From an uncultured Acidobacteriota bacterium (lineage in GTDB: Bacteria > Acidobacteriota > UBA6911), in the NCBI GenBank assembly GCA_963843575.1, contig CAWJKZ010000021.1, forward strand, positions 96,001-160,000: a stretch of DNA of 64,000 bases, in the 5' to 3' direction. The position numbers were made by a program, and so were the translations under genes. The notes under the pieces are model-generated. The model was given only the letters and a program-made list of their open reading frames with translations, was not told the origin of the DNA and searched no databases. Positions 10,968 through 62,876 of the stretch are shown here, one piece after another (positions within the stretch are counted from its first letter, which is position 1; every line of letters starts with the position of its first letter).

Positions 10968-10968
10968 C

Positions 10969-15583: not shown

Positions 15584-15616
15584 GGCATCCTCCCCAGTCC
15601 TTGCTTAGAAAATGAG

Positions 15617-20498: not shown

Positions 20499-20551
20499 TG
20501 GTCGTGAGATTCCAGAAGACAGACGGCCCCGTCGAGCCGCCGTGCTCCATA

Positions 20552-34369: not shown

Positions 34370-35148
34370 TCGTCGACACGAACGCCTATCTCGGCCCGTA
34401 CGCCTTCCGTCAGCTCCGGCACAATACCCCCGCAGGGCTGCTGAGCCTGATGGATGCCAAAGGCATCGGCAGGGCCTGGGTCTCCAGCGCCGCGGCGATC
34501 GCTTACCGCAACGTCCAGCCCGCCAACGAGGAGCTGGGCCGGGCCGTGCGGCAGTTCCGCGACCGTCTCGTCCCGCTGGCGGTGATCAATCCGTTCTACA
34601 GCGGGTGGCGCGACGATCTGGCCGCGTGCGTCGAGCAGTTCGGGATGAAGGGGCTCCGGCTCTATCCCCGTTGGCACAATTACCGCCTCACCGACGGCTG
34701 CTGCCTGGACGCGATCGACGCCGCAACGGCGCTCGGGCTGTTCGTCACCCTACCGTTGCGCGTCGAAGACTACCGGCAGCGCAGCTGGCTGGTGGACGTG
34801 AAAGACTTGACCCCGGCGGACGTTGAGCCGTTGATCCGGGCCAGGCCGCATGCCCGGTTCGTGCTGTTGAATGGATCGGGCTACACCGCGTCGGCATTGG
34901 GCCGCAGGGACGGCGACCTGCCGGCCAATTACTGGATAGAGATCTCGCGGCTCAGCGCCCTGATGGCCAACGAGATCGGCGCCCTGATCGGCGCGCTGGG
35001 CGCGGGCCGCGTCGTCTTCGGCACGGGCATGCCCTTCAACGCGCCCGACCCTGCGCTGGTCAAGATCGAAGCCCTCCGGTTGAGCCGGGGCGATGCGGAC
35101 CTCATCCTCGGGCGGAACGCGTCGCGGATCGAAGAGCTGAAGCCTTGA
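34366..35148 (+). CDS. Amidohydrolase-fold protein with degenerate metal ligands
   Basis: ATGA overlap with the previous gene; IVDTNAYLG, GLRLYPRWH, RVVFGTGMP. Confidence 0.82.
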   Translation: MIVDTNAYLGPYAFRQLRHNTPAGLLSLMDAKGIGRAWVSSAAAIAYRNVQPANEELGRAVRQFRDRLVPLAVINPFYSGWRDDLAACVEQFGMKGLRLYPRWHNYRLTDGCCLDAIDAATALGLFVTLPLRVEDYRQRSWLVDVKDLTPADVEPLIRARPHARFVLLNGSGYTASALGRRDGDLPANYWIEISRLSALMANEIGALIGALGAGRVVFGTGMPFNAPDPALVKIEALRLSRGDADLILGRNASRIEELKP

Positions 35149-47241: not shown

Positions 47242-48204
47242 TCAACGGGTCCGCTCGTATTCGATGACGCCGGCGAGGATGGAGTCGAGGTCGTGGCGGT
47301 TTTCGTACCCGATGAGTTTTTTGATCTTGGAGATGTCGGGCACGCGCCGTTGCATGTCCTCGAATCCCTCCTGATATGCCTGGTCGTACGGGATGTGGGT
47401 GATCGGCGAGGAACTCCCGGCGGCGCGCTTCACCCGCTCGGCGAGCTCGTTGATCGAGATCTCTCCATCCCCCCCGATGTTGAAGATCTCGCCCACGGCT
47501 CGGGATTCGTCGATCAAGCCGATGACGCCGCGCACGACATCCTCGACGCCTGTGAAACTGCGGGTTTGTGTGCCGTCGCCGAAGATCGTGATCGGCTCGT
47601 TGCGCAACGCCTGCCCCACGAACCTCGGGATCACCATCCCGTACCGCCCGGTCTGCCTGGGCCCGACGGTGTTGAAGAACCGGGCAATGATTACGGGCAG
47701 CTGCTTCGTCCGGTAATAGGCCAGCGCGAGGAACTCGTCCATCGCCTTGGTGGCGGCGTAGCTCCAGCGGGCGACGGAAGTCGACCCGTAGACGCGCGCG
47801 TCGTCCTCCCGCAGCGGGACGTTGGAATTCCTGCCATAGACCTCGGAGGTGGACGCGATGAAGGTCTTCTTGCGGAACTTGTTGGCGAGTTCGAGCACGA
47901 TCTCGGTCCCCACGATGTTCGTGTGAATCGACTTGAGCGGCTCGTCGATGATCAGCTGCACCCCCACGGCAGCGGCGAGGTGCACGACAACGTCGCAGAT
48001 GCCGGTCAGCTCGAGCATCGTCTCCCGGTTCAGGATGGTGTCGCGGACAAAGTGAAACTGGCGCTGGGCAGAGATCTGGCTGATGTTGTCCAGGCTCCCG
48101 GTGGAAAGGTCGTCGATGACGTAGACCTCATCCCCGCGCCCGAGGTAAGCCTCGGCAAGGTAGGAGCCGATAAAACCGGCCCCTCCGGTGATCAGAACCC
48201 TCAC
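47242..48204 (-). CDS. NAD-dependent nucleotide-sugar epimerase/dehydratase
   Basis: LITGGAGFIG, HLAAAVGV, STSEVYG, YAATK, RFFNTVGPRQ. Confidence 0.93.
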   Translation of the reverse strand: MRVLITGGAGFIGSYLAEAYLGRGDEVYVIDDLSTGSLDNISQISAQRQFHFVRDTILNRETMLELTGICDVVVHLAAAVGVQLIIDEPLKSIHTNIVGTEIVLELANKFRKKTFIASTSEVYGRNSNVPLREDDARVYGSTSVARWSYAATKAMDEFLALAYYRTKQLPVIIARFFNTVGPRQTGRYGMVIPRFVGQALRNEPITIFGDGTQTRSFTGVEDVVRGVIGLIDESRAVGEIFNIGGDGEISINELAERVKRAAGSSSPITHIPYDQAYQEGFEDMQRRVPDISKIKKLIGYENRHDLDSILAGVIEYERTR

Positions 48205-48274
48205 GTTGTCTCCTCGATGATGCCCGACTGTAGTATGTCCGAGCGGCGGCGTCAAACCCCGATTGGGGCGCACG

Positions 48275-49480
48275 CTACCGGACGGCCGTGAACATGATCT
48301 CGAGGAGCCCGTCGGGGCTTACGAGAGCCGCTTCGACGGTAGCCCGCGCCGGGAAATCGGCGCTGAACACTTCACGGTACGCACCGTTCATCGCGGTGAA
48401 GTTGTTTACGTCCGTTATGTACACGACGGCGTCCGCGACCTGTTCCCAGCCGAAGCCGGCTGACTTCAGGGTGCGGCCCACGCGGGCCAGGATCTCCCTC
48501 GTCTGCGCTTGCGTGTCGTTCCGGTTCGCCTCGGTGTTTCCCATCATGCCGGCGACGTACAGCCGGTCGCCGGCGCGCACGGCGGCGCTGAAGTTGGGGT
48601 TGGCCTGTCCCGGTGCGCCGTCGGGCCCGGGAGTGACGAACGCTTCGTGTGTGCCGCGCACCGCCGTCAGGCCGATTTCAACGAGGAACTGCGGGCCCAT
48701 CAGGGGCGCCCTGACCGTCGCACGGGCGGGCGGGTCCTCAGGGAAGTAGGGTCGGTAGGCGGCGTTCATCCCCTGGAAATCGGCCACGTCGGTGATGAAG
48801 ACGCGCGAAGCGACCACGTTGGAGTAGTCCATGCCGGCGGCGCGCAGTATCTCCCCTGCGTTGTCGAGGACGGTGCGCGTCTGCGCCTGAATGTCGCCAG
48901 GCACCACGGCGTTGTCCCTCCCATTGCGCGAGACGAGGCCCGAAAGGAACAGCGTGTCCCCTGACAGGATGCCGTAGCTGTAGGGATTGGTCGACGGCGT
49001 CCACCCGGCAGGGTGGACGACCTTGCGCTCGCCTCCGGCGGGGATCGCGACCATGGAAATTTCGATGAGCGCGTCCGGGCGGACGAGATTGGCCTCGACG
49101 GTCGTGCGCACCGGCGGGTCCTTGGGCCAGTAGCCCCGGTAAACCTCGTTCATCGCCTGGAAATCGGACGCACGCTTCAGGTAGACGTTCACCGACGCGA
49201 CATCGGCCAGCGACGATCCGGCCGCGGTGGCCAGCCCGCCCATGAAATCGAGCAGGTGCTTGGTCTGGGCCCGAACGTCCCCCTTGATCACGTTTCCGGA
49301 CGCGTCCGTCGCCAGCGCACCGGAGATATAGATGAAGCCGCCGGCCCGCACCGCGGGGCTGAACGGCAACTTCATGTCGGGGCCAAGACGGTAGACCCGC
49401 CTGGGGGACTGCGAGGCCAGCGCTCCGACAGTAGCAAGCAGCACGAGAATCCTGATTCCGTGTTTTCGCATGCCGGGCAT
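48275..49480 (-). CDS. Rid (YjgF/RidA) family protein with three tandem domains and a signal peptide
   Basis: Three repeats ending PPVRTTV, PPARATV and FPARATV, each followed by LxEI; hydrophobic N-terminal leader. Confidence 0.9.
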   Translation of the reverse strand: MPGMRKHGIRILVLLATVGALASQSPRRVYRLGPDMKLPFSPAVRAGGFIYISGALATDASGNVIKGDVRAQTKHLLDFMGGLATAAGSSLADVASVNVYLKRASDFQAMNEVYRGYWPKDPPVRTTVEANLVRPDALIEISMVAIPAGGERKVVHPAGWTPSTNPYSYGILSGDTLFLSGLVSRNGRDNAVVPGDIQAQTRTVLDNAGEILRAAGMDYSNVVASRVFITDVADFQGMNAAYRPYFPEDPPARATVRAPLMGPQFLVEIGLTAVRGTHEAFVTPGPDGAPGQANPNFSAAVRAGDRLYVAGMMGNTEANRNDTQAQTREILARVGRTLKSAGFGWEQVADAVVYITDVNNFTAMNGAYREVFSADFPARATVEAALVSPDGLLEIMFTAVR

Positions 49481-49620: not shown

Positions 49621-49810
49621 TTGATACTCGATGAAGTGCGCAGGTGGTGTCGTTCGTTGCCGCACGCGACGGAGGACATCAAATGAGACGGCGACCTGGT
49701 CTTCTCCATCGGCGGCAAGATGTTCGCGGTCGTCATGCTGGATCCGCCGCACCCCCGAGCTGGTCAAGGCCCGCTTACCACGCAGGCTCCGTGCCGCGCC
49801 CTGCCCGTAA
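49621..49810 (+). pseudogene. MmcQ/YjbR-family remnant
   Basis: WCRSLPHATEDIK*DGDLVFSIGGKMFA with TGA (49684) at a usual Trp; then jumps out of frame to C-terminal-like ELVKARLP; GGAGG RBS retained. Confidence 0.75.
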
Positions 49811-49815
49811 AACAA

Positions 49816-49909
49816 GTGGGTCCGGGCTTCAGCCCGGACGTCTTTTGATCTGATCTACGCGGCGACGGGCGCACGTTATAGCGACGTCCGCGCTGAAGCG
49901 CGGACCCAC
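49816..49909. repeat. REP-like inverted doublet, family A
   Basis: GTGGGTCCGGGCTTCAGCCCGGAC ... GTCCGCGCTGAAGCGCGGACCCAC. Confidence 0.8.
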
Positions 49910-49922
49910 TAACGGGGGGCTA

Positions 49923-49992
49923 AGGGCTCGCGCAAGAATGAGTTCACATTTTGCTGATCGCCAGAATGTGAACTTATTCTTGCGCGAACCCT
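49923..49992. mobile_element. MITE-like 70-bp hairpin
   Basis: 31-bp inverted arms with 28 matches around an 8-bp loop; AT-rich core; TAA and TGA at the ends. Confidence 0.5.
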
Positions 49993-50061
49993 GAGGCGCA
50001 GGAACTGCCTTGGGCTAAAATGAAAAGGAATCCATCTTCCATCCGATAAGGGGGTAGAGCC

Positions 50062-50280
50062 ATGAACGGGGACGCAAGCGAAGATACGACCGTCTACAGA
50101 GTCGTGGTCAACCACGAGGAGCAGTATTCCATCTGGCCCGCCGACAGGGACCTGCCTTTGGGTTGGCGGGATGAAGGAAAGAGCGGGACTAAAAAAGAGT
50201 GCCTCGCCCACATCAGCGAGGTCTGGACGGACATGCGTCCGCTCAGCCTCAGAGTTAAAGACTCCCGCCCGATCGAATAG
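50062..50280 (+). CDS. mbtH: MbtH-like protein
   Basis: [25 protein letters not shown]. Confidence 0.95.
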
Positions 50281-50299
50281 GCAGTCTGAACAGGATCGA

Positions 50300-53200
50300 A
50301 TGAACCTCCAGGATATCGGACATCACGGGATACGGTCCGGGATACCACGCGTGGACGGGCGCGAGTTTCCCCTTTCCTTTGCCCAGCAGAGGTTGTGGTT
50401 TCTCGACCAGCTCGGCGAAAGTGGACCGCTCTACAACGTCCCGGTCTGCTTCCGGCTGCAAGGAATCCTCCGGACCGGGGAGCTACAACGCGCGCTCGGG
50501 GCGGTGGCAGCGCGGCACGCGACGCTCCGCACGAATTTCGTCGAGGTTGGCGGGATTCCGAGACAAGTGGTCTCCGAGCCGCGGGAGATCCCGCTGCCGC
50601 TGGTGGACCTGACGGGCCTGCCGGCGCATGAGCGTGAGAGGGAGGCCGTCCGGCTTGCCGGCCAGGAGGCTCAGCGGCGTTTCGACCTCAGCCGCGACCC
50701 GCTTTTGCGCGCCGCCGTGTTCCAGCTCGGGCCCGAGGATCACCTGCTGATCGCGAACATGCACCACATCGTGTCGGACGGGTGGTCGTTGGGCATCTTC
50801 TTTAGGGAACTCGGCGCATTCTACGAAGAGTATGTCACCGGGACACCTGCCGCCCTTGCGCCCCTGCCGATCCAGTACGCGGATTTCGCGGTCTGGCAGC
50901 GGGAGAATCTGCAGGGGGCGAGCCTGGATAAGCTGCTTTCGTACTGGAAGGGTCAGCTCGACGGCGCACCGGGGCTCTTGGAGCTCCCGACCGACCGGCC
51001 GCGTCCCGCCGTGCAGCAGTTTCTGGGCGGGTCCGTCGCCATCGAGGTGCCCCGGCCCGTGTCCAGGGCGCTGGCGGAGTTCAGCCGCCGGCACCGGGCG
51101 TCGATGTTCATGACGCTGCTCGCTGCATTCAAGCTTCTGCTGTACCGCTACAGCGGCCAGACGGACATCGTCGTCGGATCTCCCATCGCCGGGCGGAACC
51201 GCATCGAAGTCGAGTCGCTGATCGGGTTTTTTGTGAACACGCTGGTCCTGCGGAGCAAGGTCGAGGGCGCCGGGGATTTTCGCGCCCTGCTGCACCGCGT
51301 GCGCGAGACGGCACTGGAGGCCTACAACTACCAGGATCTCCCGTTCGAGAAGCTCGTGGAGGAACTCCAACCCCGCCGCGAAATGAGCCACAGCCCGCTA
51401 TTCCAGGTTATGTTCGGGTTCCAGAACGCGGCGCCGCCGCCCGCACTCCTGCAGCTAAAGGTCACGCCCCTCGAGATCCACACCGGCACTTCCAAGTTCG
51501 ACCTGATCCTGTCGCTGAGCGACGGGCCGCAGGGGCTGCAGGGAAAACTGAACTACGACGCCGGACTATTCGACGCGTCGACGGCGGCCCGGATGGCGGG
51601 ACATTACCGCAACCTGCTCGAAGCCGTCGTGGCGGTTCCGAACCACCCGGTCGGCAGGCTCGCACTCATGACTGAAGGCGAACGCCTTCAGATCGTGTCG
51701 ACGTGGAATTCGACGGAGGCCGATTTTCCGACGAACGCCTGCATCCATCAACTGTTCGAAGAACAGGCCGGGCGCACCCCCGAACGGGTCGCCGTCAACT
51801 ACGGGGACGTCCGGATCACCTACGGCAGGCTGAACGCTTGCGCCAATCAGCTGGCGCGCAAGCTCCAAGCCATGGGCGTGGGGCCGGAGGTTCTGGTCGG
51901 CATCTTCATGGAACGGTCGGCCGGCATGGTCGTCGCGCTGCTCGCGGTTCTCAAGGCCGGCGGGGCCTACGTCCCCCTGGACCCCGGCTATCCCGCCACA
52001 CGACTCTCCTTCATGATCGAGGACTCGGGCGCCCGCGTGATCCTGACCGAAGAGAAGCTGGCTCCTAACCTGCCGCCCGGGAGTGCACGGGTGCTGGTCC
52101 TGGACAAGGTGCAGGACGAGATCACGTCGCAATCCGGACATAATCTCGCTTGCGTGACCACCGGCGGCAATCTCGCGTACCTGATGTACACCTCGGGTTC
52201 GACCGGCACGCCCAAAGGGGCCGCCATCCCTCACCGGGCCGTCAATCGCCTCGTGATCCACACCGACTATGTCCAGCTCGTCCCCGACGATGTGGTGGCG
52301 CAGGTCTCGAACTGCGCGTTCGACGCGGCGATCTTCGAGATCTGGGGCGCCCTGCTGAACGGCGCCCGGCTCACGGGCATTCGCAAAGAGGATGTCCTCT
52401 CGCCGGGCAGACTTGCCGGCCTGATCGAGAGGGAGGGCGTCAGCGTCATGTTCCTGACCACGGCGCTCTTCCACCAGTTGGCGCGTGAGTCGCCGGCCGT
52501 GTTCGGGAAACTCCGATGCCTGTTGGTTGGCGGCGAGGCGGCGCAGCCCAGGTGGGTGGATGCGGTGAGCCGGGAAGGGCCTCCGGAGCAGCTGCTGAAC
52601 GTCTACGGCCCGACCGAGACCACGACCTTCGCGTCGTGGCACCGCGTGACGGCGCCGCCGGGCCGCGCGAGTTCGATACCGATAGGGAAGCCGATCGCCA
52701 ACACGCGTATCCACGTGCTTGACTGCCAGATGCAGCCGACGCCCATCGGTGTCGTCGGGGAGCTCTACATCGGTGGCCCCGGGTTGGCCCGAGGCTATCA
52801 CAACCGGCCGGACACGACGGCCGACAGGTTCGTCCCCAACCCGTATGCGCTCGAGCCGGGAGGGCGGCTCTATCGGACGGGAGACCGGGCGCGTTACCTG
52901 CCGGACGGCAGCATCGAGTTCTGTGGCCGCTCGGATCAGCAGGTTAAGATCCGTGGGTTCCGCGTGGAGCTCGAGGAGATCGAAGCCGCGGTCGCCAGGC
53001 ACCCGGATGTGAAAAGGTGTGCCGTCGTGGCCGTCCGGGACGCCTCCGGAGCCAGGCGTCTCATAGGCTACGTCGTTGGCGCTGCGCAGCACCCCCCCGC
53101 GCCCGATGACCTGCGCCACTTCGCCGGCGAGAGGCTTCCGGACTACATGGTGCCCTCGGCGTTCGTCCTGCTCGACGACCTGCCGCTGTCGCCCAATGCC

Positions 53201-54391
53201 AAGGTCGACCGTGCGGCGCTTTCCGCGCTCGCCGTCTCCGTTTCGGGTCACGACCAGACTCCGGCGCTCGACGATTTCGAGCGCCGGCTCGCCAGGATCT
53301 GGGAAGCGGTCCTACGCGTCCACCCCGTCGGCGTCCGGGACAACTTTTTTGAGCTGGGAGGCCATTCGCTTCTGGCCGTCCGGCTGATTTCGCAGATCGA
53401 GAAAGCCTTCGGCCGGCGCCTGCCGATCGCGAACGTCTTCCGGTACCCCACCCCTCAACTGCTCGCGTCGGTCCTGCGGCAACAGGAATGGGTGCTGCCC
53501 CAGTCCCTGCTTGCCCCGCTGCAGCCGCTGGGGGACCGGCCGCCTTTCTTCTGGGTCCTGGGGGACAACAGCAACGCCTTTCTGCCCCAACATCTGGGGA
53601 AGGAGCAACCGGTCTACGGTCTGATGCATCAAAGCCAGGACGGGAGACCGGCGCGGTATACCACCGTGCGGGACCTGGCGGCCCACTATCTCGGCGAAGT
53701 CCAGAGCGTGCAGGGCGAAGGCCCCTATTGGCTGGGCGGCTTTTCCTTCGGGGGTCTGGTAGCCTTCGAAATGGCTCAGCAGCTTTTGGACGAGGGGCAC
53801 CGGGTCGCGCTCCTGGTGCTGCTGGAGCCCAGCCACCCCGGGAATCAAGTCCCCCGTAAGCCGCCTATTCCTGCTCCTGCTGCCGCGACGGGCGGCCGTT
53901 TCGAACACCTGGTGCGGGAAAGCCACCGCCACCTGGGGGAGATGCGCCGGCTCGAGGTGCGAGGCCAGGCGGACTATCTCTGGTCGAGAATCGTCGCGAA
54001 GGGGAGACAGGCGGCGGCTCGCCTCAAGAAACCCAGCCGACGGGCGGCCTACAGGCTGTACCTCAAGGTCGGGCGTCCTCTACCCGGGAGCCTGCAGTCA
54101 ACCTACCTGATCGATCTCTATCACAGGGCAGCGCAGAGTTACCAGGCGCGGTCCTACGCGGGGCGCGTCGTGCTCATGGGCCGTCCGGGACACCTGCCCG
54201 ACATGGTCCTTCACTGGAGCCCGTTTACTTCCGCGCTGAAGACCTGTGACCTGCCGGGCGAGACCCACACCGACGTCGTGCGCGTCCCGGAGGCGATTAG
54301 GGAGATGTGCGGAAAGCTGAGTGCCCTGATGGAAGAGTCGCTCGAGGCCGGCATTGCTGACAAGGCCGAGCCCTTAGGGGCCCGGGGCTAG
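50300..54391 (+). CDS. Single-module NRPS (C-A-T-TE)
   Basis: LSFAQQRLWFL and HHIVSDG (C); YTSGSTGTPKG, YGPTE, YRTGD (A); FFELGGHSL (T); GFSFGG (TE). Confidence 0.95.
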   Translation: MNLQDIGHHGIRSGIPRVDGREFPLSFAQQRLWFLDQLGESGPLYNVPVCFRLQGILRTGELQRALGAVAARHATLRTNFVEVGGIPRQVVSEPREIPLPLVDLTGLPAHEREREAVRLAGQEAQRRFDLSRDPLLRAAVFQLGPEDHLLIANMHHIVSDGWSLGIFFRELGAFYEEYVTGTPAALAPLPIQYADFAVWQRENLQGASLDKLLSYWKGQLDGAPGLLELPTDRPRPAVQQFLGGSVAIEVPRPVSRALAEFSRRHRASMFMTLLAAFKLLLYRYSGQTDIVVGSPIAGRNRIEVESLIGFFVNTLVLRSKVEGAGDFRALLHRVRETALEAYNYQDLPFEKLVEELQPRREMSHSPLFQVMFGFQNAAPPPALLQLKVTPLEIHTGTSKFDLILSLSDGPQGLQGKLNYDAGLFDASTAARMAGHYRNLLEAVVAVPNHPVGRLALMTEGERLQIVSTWNSTEADFPTNACIHQLFEEQAGRTPERVAVNYGDVRITYGRLNACANQLARKLQAMGVGPEVLVGIFMERSAGMVVALLAVLKAGGAYVPLDPGYPATRLSFMIEDSGARVILTEEKLAPNLPPGSARVLVLDKVQDEITSQSGHNLACVTTGGNLAYLMYTSGSTGTPKGAAIPHRAVNRLVIHTDYVQLVPDDVVAQVSNCAFDAAIFEIWGALLNGARLTGIRKEDVLSPGRLAGLIEREGVSVMFLTTALFHQLARESPAVFGKLRCLLVGGEAAQPRWVDAVSREGPPEQLLNVYGPTETTTFASWHRVTAPPGRASSIPIGKPIANTRIHVLDCQMQPTPIGVVGELYIGGPGLARGYHNRPDTTADRFVPNPYALEPGGRLYRTGDRARYLPDGSIEFCGRSDQQVKIRGFRVELEEIEAAVARHPDVKRCAVVAVRDASGARRLIGYVVGAAQHPPAPDDLRHFAGERLPDYMVPSAFVLLDDLPLSPNAKVDRAALSALAVSVSGHDQTPALDDFERRLARIWEAVLRVHPVGVRDNFFELGGHSLLAVRLISQIEKAFGRRLPIANVFRYPTPQLLASVLRQQEWVLPQSLLAPLQPLGDRPPFFWVLGDNSNAFLPQHLGKEQPVYGLMHQSQDGRPARYTTVRDLAAHYLGEVQSVQGEGPYWLGGFSFGGLVAFEMAQQLLDEGHRVALLVLLEPSHPGNQVPRKPPIPAPAAATGGRFEHLVRESHRHLGEMRRLEVRGQADYLWSRIVAKGRQAAARLKKPSRRAAYRLYLKVGRPLPGSLQSTYLIDLYHRAAQSYQARSYAGRVVLMGRPGHLPDMVLHWSPFTSALKTCDLPGETHTDVVRVPEAIREMCGKLSALMEESLEAGIADKAEPLGARG

Positions 54392-54443
54392 CCTGGATTT
54401 GCACACCGGGCGCGCCGAACAGGGCGGTGCGCCCCGGAGGTAG

Positions 54444-54480
54444 AACTCACCTCGAAGACTCCCCAAAAATCTCGAAGACC
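54444..54480 (+). repeat. CTCGAAG repeat half-element
   Basis: AACTCACCTCGAAGACTCCCCAAAAATCTCGAAGA between the convergent NRPS genes. Confidence 0.55.
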
Positions 54481-54483
54481 CAC

Positions 54484-56373
54484 TCACCGGGCGGACCCGC
54501 CTCTGCGCCGGACGACCAGCTGCGCCAGCTCCGCGATCGTGGGCGCCTCGAACAGCGAGCTTACCGGCAGCTGCAACCCGTATTCCTCCGACATGCGAGA
54601 GATCACGCGGGTGGCCGCGATCGATTGCCCTCCCAGCTCCAGGAAGTCGTCGTCCACGCCGACGCGGTCGATCTTCAGCACTGCGCGCCAGATCTCCGCC
54701 AGTTTCTCCTCCACCGGCGTGCGCGGGGCAACGAAGGCGGTCTCCGGCAGGGGCCGGACTCCGCCTGTGGCCGCCGGGAGGGCGCGCCGGTCTATCTTGC
54801 CGTTTGCCGTCAGCGGCATGGCCGCCAAGGTAACGAAGACGGAGGGGACCATGTATTCCGGGAGCTTTGCCGCCACGGCGCGGCGCAAGCGGGAGGCCTC
54901 GGGCGGGTCTGGTCCTTCCGGGACCAGGTAAGCCGCCAGGCTCATTTCGCCGGGGCCTTCCTCGCGGCCGATCACGGCCGCCTGCCGGACGCCGTCGATC
55001 CCAAGCAGGACCGTTTCGACCTCCTCGACGTCTACACGGTGCCCGCGGATCTTGATCTGGAAATCCCTGCGGCCCACGAAGCACAGGCAGCCGTCGGAGC
55101 CGCGGCGGCCCAGGTCTCCGGTGCGATAGATCCGTCCGCCGCCATTCGGGTCGGGGAGAAAGGCCGCGTCGGTCAGGTCTGGGCGGTGCCAGTAGCGCAC
55201 CGCACCGTATCGGCTGCGGATGGCGAATTCGCCGACCTCGTCCACGCTCACGGGCCGGCGCTGCTCGTCGAGGAGCAGAACCTCCGTCCCCTCGACCGGA
55301 TAACCCGCGGGCAGGACGCTGCCCGTCAGCTCCGTTTCCCTGTCCGCGAAGATGTAGGCATAGTCGCCGAACTCGGTGCAACCCAGCGAGCTCGACAGGA
55401 TGCACCGTTCCGGGAAGTGCTTCCGATACAGCGCCACGTCGCTGCGATACACGGGCTCGCCGTAGAGGCTGATCAATCGCAGGTCGACCAGTCGCTCGTT
55501 CCCCGCGAACGTGGTGACCCAGGTCCGGAACGTCGAGACGGCGGAGCGGAATACGGTCACGCGCTCGCGTTCCAGCCACGCGCCTAGGCGAGTCAGGTCT
55601 TCGCGCCGGAGGTTGACCGGATAGTAGGTAGCTCCGTTGAGCAGGGCATACAGGTAGGACCGCATGCTGGCACGCAGCATGGCCAGCCGGTCTTCCGGGC
55701 ACATCCGGGAGATGTTCGTGAAGTGCCTGATCGCCTGCAGCACGCCCCTGTGGTCCCGGACGATTCCCTTGGGCTGTCCCGTCGATCCCGACGAGAATTC
55801 CAGGGCGATGTCTGCGTCGGCAGGGAGGCGCAGCCCGGGAGCGGTCTCCGGACAACCGTCGAGCTCTTCGATGTCGAGGACGGGCACGCCCGAGAGCTCG
55901 GCCGCAAGACCGAGGTGGCCCCGGTCGGTCACGATCAGGGCCGCGCCCGACGCAGTCAGGCTGTAGTCGAGACGGGCGCGCGGGAAGGTGCTCTCCAGCG
56001 GGACCTGGACCCGGCCCGCTTTCAGGGCTGCCAGCGAAGCCACGACATAAGGGGCGCCGTTTTCGAACAGGAGGGCCACGGGTTCCGTGCTCGAGCCCGC
56101 GCGTCCCATGATGGCGTGCGCCACCCTGTTGGCGGCGCGATCCAGTTCGGCATAGGTCAGCTCGCGGGTGGGGGTCTTTACCGCCGGCCTGTCGGCGTGC
56201 AGGCGCACCGTCTTCTCGAAGCGTTCGACAATCGACTGCTCGACGTCCTCTTCCCGGAATTCCGAGAAGACTCCGGACGGGTGGACGCACCGGTTTTGGA
56301 TTGACCGCTGCAGGGCGGCCGCCTCGTTATTGCTTTCGTAACTCTGGTTCATGGGACGACTGCATTCCTCCAT
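54484..56373 (-). CDS. Stand-alone NRPS-like A-T didomain with atypical substrate pocket
   Basis: FSSGSTGQPKG, SSLGCTE, YRTGDLG, KIRGHRV, NGKIDR; T domain FLELGGQSI. Confidence 0.9.
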   Translation of the reverse strand: MEECSRPMNQSYESNNEAAALQRSIQNRCVHPSGVFSEFREEDVEQSIVERFEKTVRLHADRPAVKTPTRELTYAELDRAANRVAHAIMGRAGSSTEPVALLFENGAPYVVASLAALKAGRVQVPLESTFPRARLDYSLTASGAALIVTDRGHLGLAAELSGVPVLDIEELDGCPETAPGLRLPADADIALEFSSGSTGQPKGIVRDHRGVLQAIRHFTNISRMCPEDRLAMLRASMRSYLYALLNGATYYPVNLRREDLTRLGAWLERERVTVFRSAVSTFRTWVTTFAGNERLVDLRLISLYGEPVYRSDVALYRKHFPERCILSSSLGCTEFGDYAYIFADRETELTGSVLPAGYPVEGTEVLLLDEQRRPVSVDEVGEFAIRSRYGAVRYWHRPDLTDAAFLPDPNGGGRIYRTGDLGRRGSDGCLCFVGRRDFQIKIRGHRVDVEEVETVLLGIDGVRQAAVIGREEGPGEMSLAAYLVPEGPDPPEASRLRRAVAAKLPEYMVPSVFVTLAAMPLTANGKIDRRALPAATGGVRPLPETAFVAPRTPVEEKLAEIWRAVLKIDRVGVDDDFLELGGQSIAATRVISRMSEEYGLQLPVSSLFEAPTIAELAQLVVRRRGGSAR

Positions 56374-56382
56374 GGGCGGATT

Positions 56383-57321
56383 CTACCCGTCCTCGTTCCT
56401 GGAGCGGAAGTAGCGTTTGACGTGCTCGTGCAGCTCCGGTTTTTCAGAATTCCAACGCCAACAGCCCTCCGGGCTCAACGCGATGTCAACGTAGGGGTCG
56501 AACCGGTACCCGGCGATGTCCTGGTAGCGGCGCTCGTATTTCCGGTTGGCCCGTTCGCCGTGCCACAGGTGAAACACGCGCCCTGCGGCCCAGCCGACCC
56601 GGCCACGCACCGAGTCGAAGAACGGCCGCGCCCACGCCCGGTAGTGCCGTGCCTGCGCTTCGGTGAACGATCTGAGGCCTGTGTAGTGATCGAACAGGCC
56701 GTAGGAGGCGCAGACGACGGCCTGGTCGCCGCTCCCAAGGATGGAGGCGTCATACAGCCCGTGCCGGTCGAGGAGATCCCTCCGGGCCGCCCAGGCCAGC
56801 CCGTTACCACAGCCGCTGCGCAGGACGGAGTTCGGCACGAACATATCTTCGGGGAGCGCATTCAGTTCGCGGATCTTGTAGATAGACGACATGGCCGTGG
56901 GCGGGACGTCGGCTGGAGGGAATCCGGCGCCGTCATAATCCCTGGGCAGATCCAGCCGGGCCTGAAACAAATGGACCAGCGCGTGTCTCTGCAGCCCTTC
57001 CAGGGCGAGCAGCGGCCAGTCGGGCCGCTCGAACAGGACGTCGCAGTCGAGCCAGGCGACGCTCGCGCAATCGCGGGGCAGCGCGCCGAGCGCGAGGTTC
57101 AGGAGCCGCTCCTTCTGGAACATGATGTCGCCTTCGCATAGCTGGATCAGGCTGTCGGCGTCCCCGGGTTGAAGCTCGAGGCCGTCGAAGCCGAGTTCGA
57201 CCGTAACCAGGGGCACGCCGAGCCGCTCGCGGAAAATGCGGTAGTTTTCACGCCGGCGGCGGTATCCGGCTGGATTGAAATAGCACGTAATGGCCCAGAG
57301 CTGCCCGGCATCGCCCGTCAT
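56383..57321 (-). CDS. Putative GT-A-fold glycosyltransferase-like protein
   Basis: ITCYFNP, FQKERLLNL, DxD motif in AWLDCDVLF, LGSGD, VFHLWHG. Confidence 0.65.
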   Translation of the reverse strand: MTGDAGQLWAITCYFNPAGYRRRRENYRIFRERLGVPLVTVELGFDGLELQPGDADSLIQLCEGDIMFQKERLLNLALGALPRDCASVAWLDCDVLFERPDWPLLALEGLQRHALVHLFQARLDLPRDYDGAGFPPADVPPTAMSSIYKIRELNALPEDMFVPNSVLRSGCGNGLAWAARRDLLDRHGLYDASILGSGDQAVVCASYGLFDHYTGLRSFTEAQARHYRAWARPFFDSVRGRVGWAAGRVFHLWHGERANRKYERRYQDIAGYRFDPYVDIALSPEGCWRWNSEKPELHEHVKRYFRSRNEDG

Positions 57322-57446
57322 GGTTGCCCCTCCTGTCGGCCGGGCCGCTGAGAGAACGGCCGCCCGACCCCGTGTGACTCATCTGCTTTACTCATCGGAC
57401 GGATTCAGCTTGTCCCTCAGTACCGAACGGACCGGCCCGACCATCG

Positions 57447-59078
57447 TCAGGACCAGCGGGTCCAGTCGCGTGTGACGAGCACGTAAACGGCGATCAGCGT
57501 ATTCGTGACCGCGTGAGCCTGTATCGCGTCGGAGGTTTTCCCCCTGAGACAAAACGCCCAGCCAAACAGCAATCCCGCCAGCGTGCCCGGCAGCCAGTTG
57601 CGGCCGTGGACGGCTCCAAACAAGAGAGACGAAATCACAAATGAATAAAGCGGTATCCGGCCGGCCTGGACCTCCAGGAACCGGGCCGACACGAACCGCC
57701 GGAGCAGGTAGCCGCGAAACGCGAGTTCTTCTGCGACCGGGGTCGCGACGACGTATCCCAGCACCCTGAACGAAACCCAGAAGGCTGACCACACGGTCGG
57801 GATCTGACTCAGGCTGTCGGCCGTGTCCGCGTTCCCGGAACCCCCCCGGCGAGCCACGAGCAGCCACAGGACTGCCGCAACCGTTCCGAGCGCAGCGGCC
57901 GGCCAGGACCACGACCAGCGTGCCCGGCCATACGATGCCCGAAAGAACCACAGCACCCCCGCGATTGCGACGACGCGCACCGGGTACAGCCAGTCGAAGC
58001 CTGCCGAAACCGCCGTGGTCACCATCCCGGCGGCGACGCCGGCCATCAGCGGCGCCAGATAAGCCGCCGAGGGGCTCGACCTGAACGTCCCCGCGGGCGG
58101 TCCCGTGGTCCTTGTGAAGAATCTCATCCGCCCGGCGCCGACGATGAGCCCCAGGGCCACCGCGTTGAAGGCCAGCCACCCGGCCTGGGAATGGAACCCC
58201 CCCATCGCCACTTCCGCCGAAACACGGGTGCCGAGGACGATCAGGGAGGCTAGACGAAAAGCGTTGGTGACCCACATCGACGCGAGGCCTATCGGGAACA
58301 GCAGGAACGCCTGGGGAAAACGAAACTCGTCCCGGTACATCCCCAGATAGACGGCGAGAAAGATCGAGACGAGCCCCATCCCCTCGAATCCCGAGCACGA
58401 CACCCCCACAATGACCTTGAAACCGGCCGTGCCGAGGGTCCTGGTCAGCGGATCGCAGACAAGATCGGGATACAGCGGATGCAGCAGCCAGTAAACACTC
58501 TGGAACGTGTACCCGGCGAGGGATTGCCAGAGTTGCCCCAAGCGCGCCTCGGCGATATATGCCGCGCTCCCGATCGCCAGACCGCCGATCGATTCCCACC
58601 TGAAGCCCCCGAACAGCCGGGACCAGAAGTCAGGGGGAAAGACAATCAGGCACCAAGAGCCGAAAGCCGCGGTTCCGGCCAGAACCCACAGGATTACCCG
58701 CAGGACCGGCGGACCGGCTGGATGCGATCCTCCCTCGACGACCACGCGCGTCATCCAGACGAACGCTCCGAAGAGGGCAATGTGGACCAAGAGGATCAGA
58801 AACAGTCGGGTCCATTCCCGCCTCCTCTCGAGAGTCGGCTTCACCTCCGCCCAAAGTCTCCTGCCGCCGAACAGCAGCAGCGATGTCGCCACCGAGGGAA
58901 CCAGGATCTGCACGAATCCCGGCAGGTAGGTCGAGTAGTAGATCAGCCTGGCCACCAAGGAGTCGCCGTCCCCAGGCGCAGGGACGCTGAACCAGAGTTG
59001 GAGCGCCGCGACTTCGACGAACAGCAGCAGAAGCGCCCCGCCCCACTTGATGATCTGTCCAGCTGCTTTAATCTGCAT
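57447..59078 (-). CDS. xrtE: Exosortase E / CPBP (CAAX) protease fusion, VPEID-CTERM system
   Basis: Exosortase Cys-Arg-His in SCSGFEG, NAFRL and FHSQAGW; CPBP motifs PVAEELAFRG, FGAVH and AHAVTN. Confidence 0.88.
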   Translation of the reverse strand: MQIKAAGQIIKWGGALLLLFVEVAALQLWFSVPAPGDGDSLVARLIYYSTYLPGFVQILVPSVATSLLLFGGRRLWAEVKPTLERRREWTRLFLILLVHIALFGAFVWMTRVVVEGGSHPAGPPVLRVILWVLAGTAAFGSWCLIVFPPDFWSRLFGGFRWESIGGLAIGSAAYIAEARLGQLWQSLAGYTFQSVYWLLHPLYPDLVCDPLTRTLGTAGFKVIVGVSCSGFEGMGLVSIFLAVYLGMYRDEFRFPQAFLLFPIGLASMWVTNAFRLASLIVLGTRVSAEVAMGGFHSQAGWLAFNAVALGLIVGAGRMRFFTRTTGPPAGTFRSSPSAAYLAPLMAGVAAGMVTTAVSAGFDWLYPVRVVAIAGVLWFFRASYGRARWSWSWPAAALGTVAAVLWLLVARRGGSGNADTADSLSQIPTVWSAFWVSFRVLGYVVATPVAEELAFRGYLLRRFVSARFLEVQAGRIPLYSFVISSLLFGAVHGRNWLPGTLAGLLFGWAFCLRGKTSDAIQAHAVTNTLIAVYVLVTRDWTRWS

Positions 59079-59123
59079 CGGCCGGTCGCCGTGCCTCGGG
59101 TGCTCCAAGTCCCGCAGGCGAAA

Positions 59124-59168
59124 CACTCACTTTGGAGGCTCCAGGAACTCGAGGGATCTCAAAGGATC
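59124..59168 (+). repeat. CTCGAAG repeat half-element (degenerate)
   Basis: CACTCACTTTGGAGGCTCCAGGAACTCGAGGGATCTCAAAGGATCT. Confidence 0.55.
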
Positions 59169-59274
59169 TGGGGTTTTTTGGGGCAGGAATTGAATTGGCA
59201 GACAAAAGACCGGCACCCAATGTGGCCGTAAACAGAACTACACTCCGGGTTGCCTGGGAACCACAGGTTTGAGT

Positions 59275-59547
59275 CTATCGCTGGCGCTTGCGATCCCTGA
59301 AGATCATGAGGCCGCCCGCCAGCAGCGTAAGCGCACTCGCCAGCAACCCGGGATCGAGTTCGGGAGCGTGAGCGGCCGACCCCGCGTCCTTGCCGTTAAT
59401 GCCGTAAGCATTCCCGTTCGGGTTGGGGTTTCCCGGCGGATTCGCCTTGCCCGGGTCCGCCAGAGCCGTGGACGCCAGGAGCGCCAGCACAAAGAGGATG
59501 CCACAGACGAGCGACGGCCTCCTCTTTGTTCGAGATGCGCAATGCAT
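59275..59547 (-). CDS. Small secreted protein with VPEID-CTERM-like sorting signal
   Basis: AAGGAG RBS; signal peptide; Asn/Gly/Pro-rich core; APELDPG, TM helix and RDRKRQR basic tail. Confidence 0.85.
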   Translation of the reverse strand: MHCASRTKRRPSLVCGILFVLALLASTALADPGKANPPGNPNPNGNAYGINGKDAGSAAHAPELDPGLLASALTLLAGGLMIFRDRKRQR

Positions 59548-59846
59548 GTGGTGACTCCTTCGATTGGAGTGTGATTCCCGCTTCAACCCAGCTTCTGTCC
59601 CTCTCCGCAATGCCTGTTGTTGACAGTGGTACTCAGGGTGCCTCGAGACTATCGCAGGTGGTGGGCAGTTGGCAATGGAACTATGGTGGGAGTAGACATT
59701 GCATCCTGGAACCCCGCCGGCCGCACTGGCCAGGTCCGCTCGCCTCGGCACACCGAACGGCCTTTGCTTTGGAGTTTGGTTGTGCTTCCAGGTGAATTGT
59801 GATATTCAGAAACGCCGCTCCTCTGCATTCGCCCAGCGCCAGAGAT

Positions 59847-60605
59847 ATGCGACGAGAGTTCATTTATCCTCACCGGAGTGTGCGTTCCTTCCCTGTTTCC
59901 GGGCCGCGGCTGTACGCCGCGCTGGCGACGGCGGTTTCCCTCACGGCTCTGGTCTGTTATTTCGGCACGTCGCTGCTGGCTGCCCATGGCAACCTGTCGT
60001 CGTATCTGCTCGAAACGACGTGCGTCGCCGGTGTCGGGTCTGAGGTGGAGTCCGTGCGGGTATTTCCCTACCTGGGGAGTGCGGTGGTGCCTCGGGTACC
60101 ATTTCCGCCCAACCGGGCCAACCCGCTGCGGACGGGGATCGTGTTTGCGTCGTTCCTTTTCGGATTGATCCTGATCCACCGGCGGTTCCCGCTCAGCCGC
60201 AACTTTGTCGTTTTTCTGATGGTGCTCCTCTGTGCGGCCGCGGGGGTGATGTTCTTCAACCCCTCTTTTCATTTCGATTCCGGCATGTTCGCGCAGATCT
60301 GGTTACGCGGTGAGTTCCTGGTCTGGCTGTTGCTCCCCTGGGTTTCGGCCCTGCTTTTCATTCTGACCATGCCGTCGGTCGCGGCGGGCGTGGGCTGGGC
60401 GCTGTCGATGCAGGCGTACGCCATTTTCTGGTCCGCCCTCCGCTTCGTCTTCTGCCTGGGCGTGCTGCACTTTACCGGCATCCTGTTTTTGCCCCTGCTC
60501 TGGTTCTCCCTGGGGATATTGTTCGACATGGTCTACATCCTGACGTTTTACAGCTTGGCGCTGCAGTGGTCCATGAAGCGAGCGATGGGCGAGAGGCGGT
60601 TGTGA
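59847..60605 (+). CDS. Polytopic membrane protein of unknown function
   Basis: About 6 hydrophobic helices; stop overlaps the GTG of the GT2 gene. Confidence 0.78.
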   Translation: MRREFIYPHRSVRSFPVSGPRLYAALATAVSLTALVCYFGTSLLAAHGNLSSYLLETTCVAGVGSEVESVRVFPYLGSAVVPRVPFPPNRANPLRTGIVFASFLFGLILIHRRFPLSRNFVVFLMVLLCAAAGVMFFNPSFHFDSGMFAQIWLRGEFLVWLLLPWVSALLFILTMPSVAAGVGWALSMQAYAIFWSALRFVFCLGVLHFTGILFLPLLWFSLGILFDMVYILTFYSLALQWSMKRAMGERRL

Positions 60606-62014
60606 TCTATCTCGTGTGGGGTTGCAGGATCTGCCTGGTTTTCACCGTGCTGGTGCTTACAGCGTACGTCGTCAGGCACCACTTTTTCGTTCTCTTCCGC
60701 ATCTCGACGCGGAAATCGCGCGACATGATGGAGTTGGTCGGGTTCACGACGCCGACGGTGACGGTGCTCGTGCCCATGCACAACGAGGAGGCGGTAGCGG
60801 CCGACGTGCTGCAGGCACTGGTGAACTGCGACTACGACGAGGGTAGGCTGGAGGTCTTGGCGGTCAACGACCGGTCGGAAGATCGCACCGGCGAGATCAT
60901 CGACGAGTTCGCGGCCAGGTACCCGGCCATCAGGGCGGTTCACCGCACGGCGGGAGAGGGGGGGAAGGGGGCGGCGCTGAAGCATGCCAGCACCCAGGCC
61001 CGGGGAGAGATCCTGCTGCTGTTCGACGCGGATTACATTCCGAGCCGGGCCATGATCAGGTTCCTGGTCGCTCCGTTTTGCGATCCTGAAGTGGGGGCGG
61101 TCATGGGCCGCGTCGTGCCCCACAACGGGGGAGCGAGCCTCCTGGCGGGACTGCTCGAACTGGAGCGGGGCGCCGGCTACCAGATCGGTCAGAAAGCGCG
61201 CTATGACCTCGGTCTTACCCCGCAATTCGGCGGGACCGTCGGGGGGGTCCGCGCTTCCGTGCTCGCGGCGGTGGGGGGATGGAACACCAACTCCCTCACG
61301 GAAGACACGGACCTGACCTTCCGCCTGCTGCTGAAGGGGTGGAAGGTTGCCTACGTGAATCGGGCCGAATGCTACGAGGAGGCGCCCGAGACGTGGCAGG
61401 TGCGGAGCAGGCAGATCGGCCGGTGGGCCATGGGCCACACCGAATGTCTGCACGCTTTCTGGAAGCAGTGGATCCGGCGGCGGTCGCTGACCAGGGCCGA
61501 AAAGATCGATGGCCTCTTCGTCCTGGCCTGCTATTGGACGGCCCCGATCCTCGTGCTGGGATGGCTGGCCTCGCTGGTGCTGTTTTTCACGCCACAGGCC
61601 CACGAGTCGGTTTTTTTCCTGCTCGCGCTCTCCTTCGTCGGTTATCAGCTGTTCGGCAACCAGGCGACCTTCCTGGAACTCGGCGCCGCCGCCCTGCTGG
61701 ACGGCAACCGCCGGCGCGTCGTTCTGCTGCCGCTGAGCCTCTTCAATTTTTTCGCCAGCACGGGCGCGATCTGCCAGGCGCTGCTGAGTTACTACATCGG
61801 TGGTTTCTTCGGTTCCGGGCCCCACTACTGGCACAAGACCAAGCGCTACCGCGGGGGCAACGGAGGTCCGCACCGGAACGGCAACGGAAACGGGCGCCCC
61901 AACGGGGGTCACGCCAACGAAAACGGCGGGAGCAACGGTGTAGTGAACGGCAGCCTGGCGAACCTCGGCGGCCGCAGTCGCGGGCAAGGGCCACAGGAAG
62001 GTCGGACGAAATAA
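60602..62014 (+). CDS. Processive GT2 glycosyltransferase (cellulose synthase/PgaC/IcaA-like)
   Basis: VPMHNE, NDRSED, GKGAAL, FDADY, TEDTD, QIGRW (D,D,D,QxxRW); flanking TM helices. Confidence 0.92.
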   Translation: MIYLVWGCRICLVFTVLVLTAYVVRHHFFVLFRISTRKSRDMMELVGFTTPTVTVLVPMHNEEAVAADVLQALVNCDYDEGRLEVLAVNDRSEDRTGEIIDEFAARYPAIRAVHRTAGEGGKGAALKHASTQARGEILLLFDADYIPSRAMIRFLVAPFCDPEVGAVMGRVVPHNGGASLLAGLLELERGAGYQIGQKARYDLGLTPQFGGTVGGVRASVLAAVGGWNTNSLTEDTDLTFRLLLKGWKVAYVNRAECYEEAPETWQVRSRQIGRWAMGHTECLHAFWKQWIRRRSLTRAEKIDGLFVLACYWTAPILVLGWLASLVLFFTPQAHESVFFLLALSFVGYQLFGNQATFLELGAAALLDGNRRRVVLLPLSLFNFFASTGAICQALLSYYIGGFFGSGPHYWHKTKRYRGGNGGPHRNGNGNGRPNGGHANENGGSNGVVNGSLANLGGRSRGQGPQEGRTK

Positions 62015-62083: not shown

Positions 62084-62354
62084 GTGACCGCTTGGCCTTT
62101 CATCGCGTTTTCCTTGATCGTCATGGCTTTGGTCTGCGCCCACTTCCTCGTGGCCTACCGGGCCTGGCAAGCCTCACGCGGCGAGGAGTTTTCCGACATC
62201 GATCCCGATTACGTGACTGGAGATGCCCGGGAGCCTCCTCGGTCCTCTCCCGGCGGGATATCCCTCCTGCGACGATCATCAAAACTGGTCCGGCCGGAGC
62301 CGGGAGCCGCTGCTCCTGATGAAGGGCGCGCTCGACTATCTCCTCACCAACTGA
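62084..62354 (+). pseudogene. Probable truncated or fused remnant of downstream operon gene(s)
   Basis: TM-containing N-terminus (VTAWPFIAFSLIVMALV...IDPDYV) loses coding character; a different frame ends LLMKGALDYLLTN* just before a REP doublet. Confidence 0.4.
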
Positions 62355-62360
62355 TGCCCA

Positions 62361-62426
62361 GTGGGCCGCGCCAGCCCGACGCGGCCCCGCGACCGTCACG
62401 GGCGGGGGCGGGCCGCCCCCGCCCAC
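62361..62426. repeat. REP-like inverted doublet, family B
   Basis: GTGGGCCGCGCCAGCCCGACGCGGCCCC ... GGGCGGGGGCGGGCCGCCCCCGCCCAC. Confidence 0.75.
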
Positions 62427-62459
62427 CGGACCGTCGCCGGAAGGCCAGGATGCGCGCGT

Positions 62460-62540
62460 CGCGGTCTTGAGCACGATCTCGGGGCTCAGCGGGGTTTCGT
62501 AGGGATCGTCGATGCCGGAGAACCGTTCGATTTTCCCCAG
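62460..62540 (-). pseudogene. C-terminal fragment of adenylyl-sulfate kinase (CysC-like)
   Basis: GKIERFSGIDDPYETPLSPEIVLKT resembles the CysC C-terminal FTGIDDPYExP..PE motif; no P-loop upstream. Confidence 0.65.
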
Positions 62541-62876
62541 GCTTCGATCGGTGAGGCTCACCCGCGAGTGGCGGACATGTCGCTGCACCATGTCGCTTCG
62601 TTCCTCCTCCAGGACGAGCAGCGACACCAGCTTTCGTCCGCCGGATACACCGAACGCCTGAACCACTGCGCTTCCAGCTTGCCGGGCGCCCGACACAGGG
62701 GAAAACCTTAGCCGCGGGCGTCGGGCCGCCGGCGTGTGCACGCGGGCTGCGCGGCAAAACCGCGAGCAAAACGCTCAGGGGCGAGGCCTGCCGGGCCGAT
62801 GATTAGTGTACGGCCCGCCGTACGAGCCGGTGTGTGGACGACGTGAAGGGACCGGTTCCGTGATGGGCCCGCTTCG

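Follow-up and report, generated by a model that had tools for sequence, protein, structure and literature searches.

The closest described relatives of the gene block considered here fall into separate groups. Exosortase E, an exosortase fused to a CPBP protease, and the small VPEID-CTERM proteins whose genes adjoin it are covered by the curated models TIGR04162 and TIGR04161, and no biochemistry of this enzyme was found in the literature that we searched. Nonribosomal peptide synthetase (NRPS) lines of two modules, in which a stand-alone adenylation-carrier (A-T) protein presumably loads an acid that is not an amino acid, and A-T-TE enzymes ending in a thioesterase (TE) are a second point of comparison, and the processive GT2 synthases PgaC/IcaA, NodC and cellulose synthase are a third. 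Counterparts of all of these meet at positions 50,062 to 62,014 of a 64,000-nucleotide stretch of DNA, hereafter the window, from an uncultured bacterium of the Acidobacteriota (lineage UBA6911; assembly GCA_963843575.1, contig CAWJKZ010000021.1, positions 96,001 to 160,000). Here the gene of an exosortase E (XrtE) and that of a 90-residue mini-protein are flanked on one side by a GT-A-like gene, an A-T didomain gene and the genes of an MbtH-like protein and a condensation-adenylation-carrier-thioesterase (C-A-T-TE) protein, and on the other by those of a membrane protein and a GT2 synthase. The original prediction, made from the letters of the window, joined these parts into one candidate system that couples a split NRPS to exosortase E surface sorting and glycan synthesis. 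Comparison with the sequences of other loci does not support a coupling of the NRPS to exosortase E, and we consider it fairly probable that the block is made of three separately conserved units standing side by side between repeats and gene remnants, the first of which (XrtE and the mini-protein) is tied to the other two by adjacency alone.

The surroundings of xrtE in other genomes bear most directly on this reading. Of the xrtE loci in contigs that represent one genome per species, at least 469 in all, we viewed the 80 best, each with flanks of up to 10 kb, and these came mostly from Acidobacteriota and Planctomycetota, not mainly from Alphaproteobacteria as had been supposed of XrtE. Searches of the 80 loci by tblastn with the eight block proteins gave no match for MbtH, the GT-A-like protein or the membrane protein, two weak matches for GT2, and A-domain matches in two loci only (L049 and L066). 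Profile searches followed the same lines, with hidden Markov models of our own alignments, and phmmer for single domains, run on all open reading frames (ORFs) of at least 60 amino acids in 82 loci (the 80 and two plasmid loci, 1.39 Mb); not one relative of the C domain, MbtH, the GT-A-like protein or the membrane protein was found there. The A-T profile had two strong matches, again in L049 and L066, and one marginal match (E 0.0056), and the GT2 profile four weak ones (E 5e-10 to 3e-3). The adenylating genes of L049 and L066 are acyl-CoA-ligase-like, carry no carrier domain and score too low to pass the exosortase A system-associated ligase model. When neighbours within 7 kb were clustered, a membrane protein of the fatty-acid-hydroxylase family (PF04116) was found just downstream of xrtE in 18 of the 80 loci, the one neighbour to recur apart from the mini-proteins, and every other cluster in at most 8. 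The xrtE gene of the window has no adjoining PF04116 gene; an example elsewhere lies at 11870-12730 of locus L004. Thirteen plasmid records carry xrtE, mostly from Rhodobacterales and one from Novosphingobium, and in the two that were viewed the gene stands among molybdenum-cofactor/formate dehydrogenase genes in one case and in an exopolysaccharide (EPS) locus in the other, with no NRPS in either. As far as the data reach, xrtE homologues in other genomes are thus not linked to these NRPS and glycosyltransferase genes, an outcome that the original prediction itself had named as speaking against the coupling.

It remains to weigh the idea that the whole block is one system nonetheless, with the NRPS product acting as the XrtE acceptor or as an anchor or decoration of the mini-protein or of a surface glycan. 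We hold this to be improbable, and several observations in its favour weigh against our own reading. The genes of the mini-protein, XrtE, the GT-A-like protein and the A-T didomain all lie on the minus strand, separated by 148 nucleotides (196 if xrtE starts at its ATG), 125 nucleotides and 9 nucleotides, and a scan not tuned to such organisms found no terminator-like site in these gaps, so co-transcription is possible; the promoter scan, likewise not tuned to them, placed one promoter-like site 5' of the mini-protein gene. The block is, moreover, set off on both sides by repeats and gene remnants. An AMP-ligase does lie near xrtE in two of the 80 loci, those named above, and xrtE is found inside the EPS locus of one alphaproteobacterial plasmid. 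The nearest XrtE in the genome collection is 46% identical and there is no close relative, so that a link peculiar to this lineage is possible; the loci viewed are 80 of at least 469; and the same-contig argument given below infers common contigs from equal sizes, not from contig names or viewed DNA. There is also a precedent of a kind, for in the excerpt of PMC7293339 that deals with the matter, which cites Craig et al. (2011), the genes of N-acyl amino acid synthases (NAS) are described as often adjoining PEP-CTERM/exosortase genes, and NCBIfam holds an acyl-CoA ligase family, TIGR03098, that is named 'exosortase A system-associated'. The likeness of the window to the exosortase A/NAS systems, as that excerpt presents them, is that predicted acyl-amino-acid genes stand beside an exosortase and a protein with a sorting signal. 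The block differs from them in that its enzyme is a modular NRPS instead of a NAS acyltransferase, that its exosortase is of class E and not A, that both adenylation proteins stay far under the TIGR03098 cutoff of 592.35 bits (206.8 for C-A-T-TE and 154.8 for A-T), and that other xrtE loci do not show the same association. Against one system stand, further, the zero counts in the 82 loci and the contig sizes shared between A-T and GT-A-like homologues, 16 in number, none of them shared with the XrtE homologue list at a size with room for both genes; the XrtE list has only the sizes 1721 and 2923 in common with the A-T and GT-A-like lists, and these are too short for both proteins. That the genes are physically linked in this single genome, and may be co-transcribed there, keeps a small chance that the coupling is real. 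We know of no exosortase whose acceptor has been established, which is why a true coupling of NRPS and exosortase would matter. In its most definite form, in which a glycosylated acyl-amino acid from the NRPS line would be the acceptor or membrane anchor for the peptide of about 33 residues transferred by XrtE in this lineage, we find the idea very improbable; if true, such an acceptor would be the NRPS counterpart of the reported association of exosortase A systems with N-acyl amino acid synthases, and would offer a first clue to the molecule that any exosortase joins its substrates to.

Taken by itself, the exosortase unit appears canonical, and judging from its sequence the pair of XrtE and the mini-protein adds a member to a family that is already known and is biochemically uncharacterised. 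XrtE scores 212.2 bits against TIGR04162 (cutoff 150), over residues 191-556, and thus passes the exosortase E search that had been suggested for it; it also exceeds the cutoffs of the exosortase signature TIGR04178 (42.8 against 23) and of TIGR03008 (105.1 against 81), and stays under that of Pfam Exosortase_EpsH (19.7 against 25.7). Residues 450-543 form a Pfam Rce1-like (CPBP) domain (6.5e-15), and the protein is therefore an exosortase with a C-terminal CPBP fusion. In an alignment of 35 homologues C244, R291, H312, E466, E467, R471, H507 and H538 are invariant; the first three we take to be the catalytic core of the exosortase, and the Glu-Glu/Arg/His set that of the CPBP domain. Relatives are numerous, with 1454 among the candidates scored from a set of 5.8 billion proteins, the best of them 48% identical, and many carry the exosortase E label from their sources. 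The unit is therefore like exosortase E/VPEID-CTERM systems in its fusion protein, which is over the family cutoff and has the conserved Cys/Arg/His and EExxxR/H residues, and in the tiny substrate gene that adjoins it on the same strand and encodes a PE(I/L/V)D motif, a helix and a basic tail. It is unlike them in its tail sequence (APELD-PG...LMIFRDRKRQR), which TIGR04161 does not match, and in its surroundings, for no other xrtE locus examined has NRPS neighbours.

The mini-protein consists of a signal-peptide-like N-terminus, some 33 residues rich in Asn, Gly and Pro, the APELD motif, a hydrophobic helix and a basic end, and terminates in HAPELD-PGLLASALTLLAGGLMIF-RDRKRQR. This 90-residue protein, encoded beside xrtE, thus has every element to be looked for in a substrate of XrtE, namely the motif, the membrane helix and the basic tail, and its tail is the sole one of the PExD/helix/basic type in the 64-kb window. 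The VPEID-CTERM model that had been proposed as a check misses it, since TIGR04161 gave no match to the mini-protein even at E<=10. Of four other tails of non-proteobacterial type, the same model gave no match to one (L002) and scored the remaining three (L009, L012 and L078) at about 15 bits, where its cutoff is 33; three tails of proteobacterial type reached 33-52 bits. As other planctomycete and acidobacterial-type tails are also missed or barely seen, we attribute the failure to a narrow model and not to a different system. Tails of this kind are a regular feature of xrtE loci: 59 of the 80 have one or more at a distance of no more than 6 kb from the gene, and 81 of the 82 near tails share the strand of xrtE, 53 of them upstream of it and 28 downstream, against only 4 PExD-type tails in 0.88 Mb of far flanks. 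Motif counts were 25 for VPEID, 24 for APEID, 10 for TPEID, 3 for VPELD and 1 for APELD, and the precursors have a median size of 62 amino acids. In some loci (L015, L056, L061, L033 and L077) three to four near-identical mini-protein genes stand in tandem upstream of xrtE. By analogy with the sortase/exosortase model, the signal peptide would direct the precursor to export and the C-terminal helix would keep it in the membrane, and XrtE, using Cys244, Arg291 and His312, would cut at APELD and hand the Asn/Gly/Pro-rich peptide to an acceptor.

The second unit is a split NRPS, and here the original prediction stands. The Pfam domains of the larger protein, together with the motifs MHHIVSDG, LGGHS and GFSFG read directly, identify it as a modular NRPS with the order C-A-T-TE. 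Its C domain is closest to elongation-type domains (Txo1, Txo2 and TycC) and scores far lower against the starter domains of lipo-initiation. Its A domain reaches 453 bits against TIGR01733 (cutoff 317.4) and has the sequence FDAA, as is found in amino-acid-activating domains, and a hand reading of the pocket, made with GrsA-PheA numbering, gave DAFFLGVTFK, which we take to resemble the codes for Ile, Val and Leu. The A-T didomain has a carrier Ser584 that is invariant among its homologues. Its A domain falls under the TIGR01733 cutoff with 261.6 bits and lacks the residue corresponding to Asp235, owing to a five-residue deletion at the FDxS site of the A4 motif. That aspartate is, in the GrsA-PheA numbering, the residue that binds the alpha-amino group. 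The FDxS/Asp235 column is a gap in 97 of 120 A-T homologues; the residues commonest in the others are S, A, N and G, and Asp stands one column on in five. Other pocket columns are conserved, with Arg in 75, Asp in 94, Tyr in 86 and Lys517 in all of the 120. Since an adenylation domain without the Asp235 motif probably loads something other than an amino acid, the starter is probably not an alpha-amino acid, and it may be acidic.

That the two proteins form one assembly line is suggested by fusions among the relatives of the A-T didomain. These include an A-T-C protein (P0270), A-T-TE proteins (P0259 and three more according to precomputed Pfam annotation) and A-T-GT2 proteins (P0316 and P0347). 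Over 427 amino acids the C domains of P0270 and of the window share 49% identity, and by the Rosetta-stone argument the A-T didomain of the window would accordingly feed C-A-T-TE, the two making up a line of two modules. On a plasmid of Nostoc sp. UHCC 0926 (pn1, 10917-22891, L084, unannotated), an A-T protein 41% identical to that of the window is followed by a C-A-T-C protein with a docking domain, one GT4 gene and two GT9 genes. This A-T protein is also without Asp235, and the product of the Nostoc locus may be a glycosylated NRPS compound; a 286-residue ORF upstream of it was considered as a relative of the GT-A-like protein and rejected (hhalign E 0.86). The comparison with two-module NRPS lines holds for the A-T loader, for C-A-T-TE with its MbtH protein, for the absence of Asp235 from the loader and for the A-T-TE and A-T-C fusions. 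The line in the window differs in the five-residue A4 deletion, in the conserved Arg, Asp and Tyr of the pocket and in the regular pairing of its A-T family with a GT-A-fold gene that no Pfam model matches, along with occasional fusion to GT2. No characterised member of the A-T family, and no description of an exosortase-NRPS arrangement or of an A-T/GT-A-like cassette, was found in the literature searched.

The GT-A-like protein of 312 residues has no match in Pfam or NCBIfam, and its assignment comes from structure prediction. Its AlphaFold model (pLDDT 89) gave 310 PDB matches at E<=0.001 in Foldseek, and those listed are all GT-A glycosyltransferases, among them B4GALNT1, WrtF, K4CP and TarS, with TM scores of 0.29-0.46. 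A DxD motif is present as D92-C-D94 within WLDCD, with D92 invariant and D94 nearly so. The model thus predicts a GT-A fold with DxD in a protein that belongs to no sequence family of those databases. Its own family is large (3584 matches among 8000 candidates scored), and the best relatives, 50-60% identical, are all unnamed. The Atlas clusters nearest to it are labelled 'putative Glycosyl transferase family 2' (score 0.99) and include phage members. A sequence search of the PDB matched nothing but hepatitis C NS5B polymerases, over 63 residues (best E 5.6e-5), and this was set aside as chance, because the fold search returns GT-A enzymes.

The pairing of this gene with A-T was examined by comparing the top-120 homologue lists of the two proteins, that of A-T being 45-59% identical to the query. 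The lists have 16 contig sizes in common (in nucleotides: 99790, 11359, 8678, 259338, 36400, 326208, 17784, 667870, 41509, 8423, 10225, 21810, 3837, 3036, 3205 and 3359), 12 of which are at least 8 kb; the GT-A-like list has 21 distinct sizes in that range, and these 12 of them recur in the A-T list. The contigs of 3036, 3359 and 3837 nucleotides (3.0-3.8 kb), each given with the same source in both lists, are nearly filled by the two genes; the size 3205 is given with different sources in the two lists and may agree by chance. The A-T-C fusion P0270 lies on a contig of 259338 nucleotides, the size of the contig of one GT-A-like homologue. The 9-nucleotide gap, the 16 sizes and the A-T-GT2 fusions point to an NRPS unit that is conserved in its own right and linked to glycosyl transfer. 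Of the proposed link between the NRPS and glycan synthesis, then, the tie to a glycosyltransferase stands, and the coupling to exosortase E does not.

An ordinary NRPS for a diffusible metabolite, a small dipeptide-like or acyl-amino-acid compound with the GT-A-like gene as an unrelated neighbour, would accord with the layout of MbtH and C-A-T-TE, which is standard for secondary metabolism. It would also accord with the occurrence of GT-A-like relatives away from any NRPS: proteins 35% identical are encoded among small hypothetical genes on plasmids of Cupriavidus (L081), Burkholderia (L082) and Ralstonia (L083), and these plasmid relatives, with the phage members of the Atlas clusters, mean that the wider GT-A-like family is partly borne by mobile elements. 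We nevertheless think this reading improbable, in view of the close spacing to A-T, the recurrence of both genes on contigs of equal size, those of about 3 kb included, and the existence of A-T-GT2 fusions. In the three-unit reading that we prefer, the A-T didomain would load a carboxylic acid other than an alpha-amino acid. C-A-T-TE, with MbtH assisting, would use its C domain to join this starter to a branched-chain amino acid of the Ile/Val type, TE would release it, and the GT-A-fold enzyme would put a sugar on the starter or on the product. A glycosylated compound of the acyl-Ile/Val type is the likely outcome. The small acyl-amino acid of the original prediction is accordingly plausible in view of a loading A domain that lacks the amino-group Asp, and its use in surface sorting is what finds no support.

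The third unit would consist of a processive GT2 synthase that is translationally coupled to a novel membrane partner and makes a polysaccharide. The two genes overlap by 40 nucleotides. The synthase has an N-terminal membrane helix, GT2 domains, a QIGRW (QxxRW) motif and a C-terminal membrane region, by direct reading and Pfam, and shares this architecture with PgaC/IcaA, NodC and cellulose synthase. It differs from them in passing no equivalog cutoff (139.9 bits against 422.3 for the PgaC/IcaA model TIGR03937) and in its partner, which belongs to a small unnamed membrane family in place of PgaD or BcsB. A search at E<=1e-3 found 87 cluster representatives of that family in a set of 1.84 billion, and many alignments with its members open at query residue 17, which indicates that translation likely starts at 59847 and not at 59799. 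The predicted structure (pLDDT 92) is helical with one beta-hairpin and had no PDB fold match at E<=0.001 in Foldseek; tblastn against plasmids gave no match either. An Atlas label, 'exosortase K family' (score 0.77), was rejected, as hhalign of the membrane protein family against the XrtE alignment gave a probability of 0.16. One relative, P0380, carries a fused N-terminal TPR-repeat domain of about 290 residues. In the synthase itself, the last 55 or so residues (61840-62011) are of low complexity and rich in Asn and Gly; the mature part of the mini-protein (59365-59460) is likewise rich in Asn, Gly and Pro, which may be mere composition.

The NRPS and GT-A-like genes might instead cooperate with the GT2 and membrane genes, for example in making an acylated or amino-acid-substituted polysaccharide or glycolipid, and the XrtE pair would then merely lie between them. 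The repeated company that the A-T family keeps with glycosyltransferases (the GT-A-like gene, the A-T-GT2 fusions, and the GT4 and two GT9 genes of Nostoc) speaks for such an arrangement, as does the fact that both units lie within the same 12 kb, enclosed by one set of repeats and gene remnants. We judge it unlikely, however, because a membrane family of 87 representatives is small beside a GT-A-like family with 3584 matches among the 8000 candidates scored, so that most GT-A-like/A-T pairs cannot have a partner from this membrane family, and because the GT2 domain fused to A-T in P0347, which was tried as kin of the GT-A-like protein, is not detectably related to it (hhalign probability 0.3).

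All eight genes of the block that had been predicted are present at their positions according to ORF listing, translation and Pfam and NCBIfam family scans, and they are collected with the boundary features in Table 1.

Table 1. Genes of the block and features at its boundaries, numbered from the first nucleotide of the window
Feature	Position	Strand	Basis
YjbR/MmcQ-like gene remnant, left boundary	49621-49800	+	weak Pfam YjbR match, in-frame stop
REP-like hairpin doublet (49820-49839, 49886-49905) and separate hairpin (49920-49995)	49815-49995		
MbtH-like protein, 72 amino acids	50062-50280	+	Pfam MbtH PF03621, E 6.7e-23
NRPS, C-A-T-TE	50300-54391 (start ATG)	+	Pfam Condensation 1.2e-109, AMP-binding 3.7e-91, PP-binding, Thioesterase
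Stand-alone A-T loading didomain (predicted), non-canonical A domain	54484-56373	-	Pfam AMP-binding, PP-binding
GT-A-fold glycosyltransferase-like protein (GT-A-like, unk312), 312 amino acids	56383-57321	-	fold model, DxD
Exosortase E/CPBP protease fusion (XrtE)	57447-59126 (start GTG 59126 or ATG 59078)	-	TIGR04162
Precursor mini-protein, 90 amino acids, signal-peptide-like N-terminus, APELD-CTERM tail	59275-59547	-	translation
Multi-helix membrane protein, small unnamed family	ORF 59799-60605 (likely start 59847)	+	
Membrane GT2 synthase (PgaC/NodC/cellulose-synthase-like), Asn/Gly-rich tail	60566-62014	+	Pfam Glyco_tranf_2_3 9.8e-33
APS-kinase C-terminal remnant, right boundary	62466-62540, in ORF 62124-62741	-	Pfam PF01583

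The mbtH and C-A-T-TE genes are 19 nucleotides apart, C-A-T-TE converges on the A-T gene with 92 nucleotides between them, the GT-A-like gene lies upstream of A-T, and the genes of the mini-protein and the membrane protein diverge over about 300 nucleotides. The boundaries hold as originally described, in the form of a YjbR remnant, a doublet of repetitive extragenic palindrome (REP)-like hairpins, a further hairpin and gene fragments on the right. For the YjbR remnant the match is weak (E 0.019 at 49687-49800, profile positions 16-34 of 88), and that of the APS-kinase remnant covers profile positions 128-152 of 152 (PF01583, E 7.9e-4). Together the two REP-like hairpins form inverted arms of 28 nucleotides, and the arms of the separate hairpin measure 34 nucleotides; the REP pattern occurs at 5 sites in the window where 0.12 would be expected. 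Among these sites is a second REP-like doublet at 6253-6329, between the genes of a sigma-54 regulator and a fucosidase. As had been stated, the block has neither an exporter nor a phosphopantetheinyl transferase, Pfam finding neither domain in any of its eight proteins.

The remainder of the window consists of ordinary chromosomal genes of the type of a GC-rich bacterium. Just left of the block lies the gene of a 401-residue protein with three RidA/L-PSP domains (48278-49480, minus strand), adjoined by that of an NAD-dependent sugar epimerase/dehydratase (47245-48273). Farther away, an AcrB-type RND pump is split over two overlapping frames, 20555-21463 and 21117-24242 on the minus strand, which suggests a frameshift or a sequencing error, and the overlapping ORFs 33500-34366 and 33919-35145 on the plus strand, both Amidohydro_2, may be one frameshifted gene or a tandem with a miscalled start.

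The evidence gathered here argues against a coupling of the NRPS to the exosortase and may thereby spare effort on a false lead. For exosortase E it indicates that XrtE substrates in Acidobacteriota and Planctomycetota are tiny and often in tandem, and that their tails for the most part escape the curated VPEID-CTERM model. Apart from this, the block has drawn attention to a widespread, uncharacterised NRPS loading didomain which lacks the Asp235 motif and is regularly paired with or fused to glycosyltransferases. Glycosylated products of the acyl-amino-acid type have, to our knowledge, been isolated by nobody from such lines, and the didomain and its partners point to a family of them.

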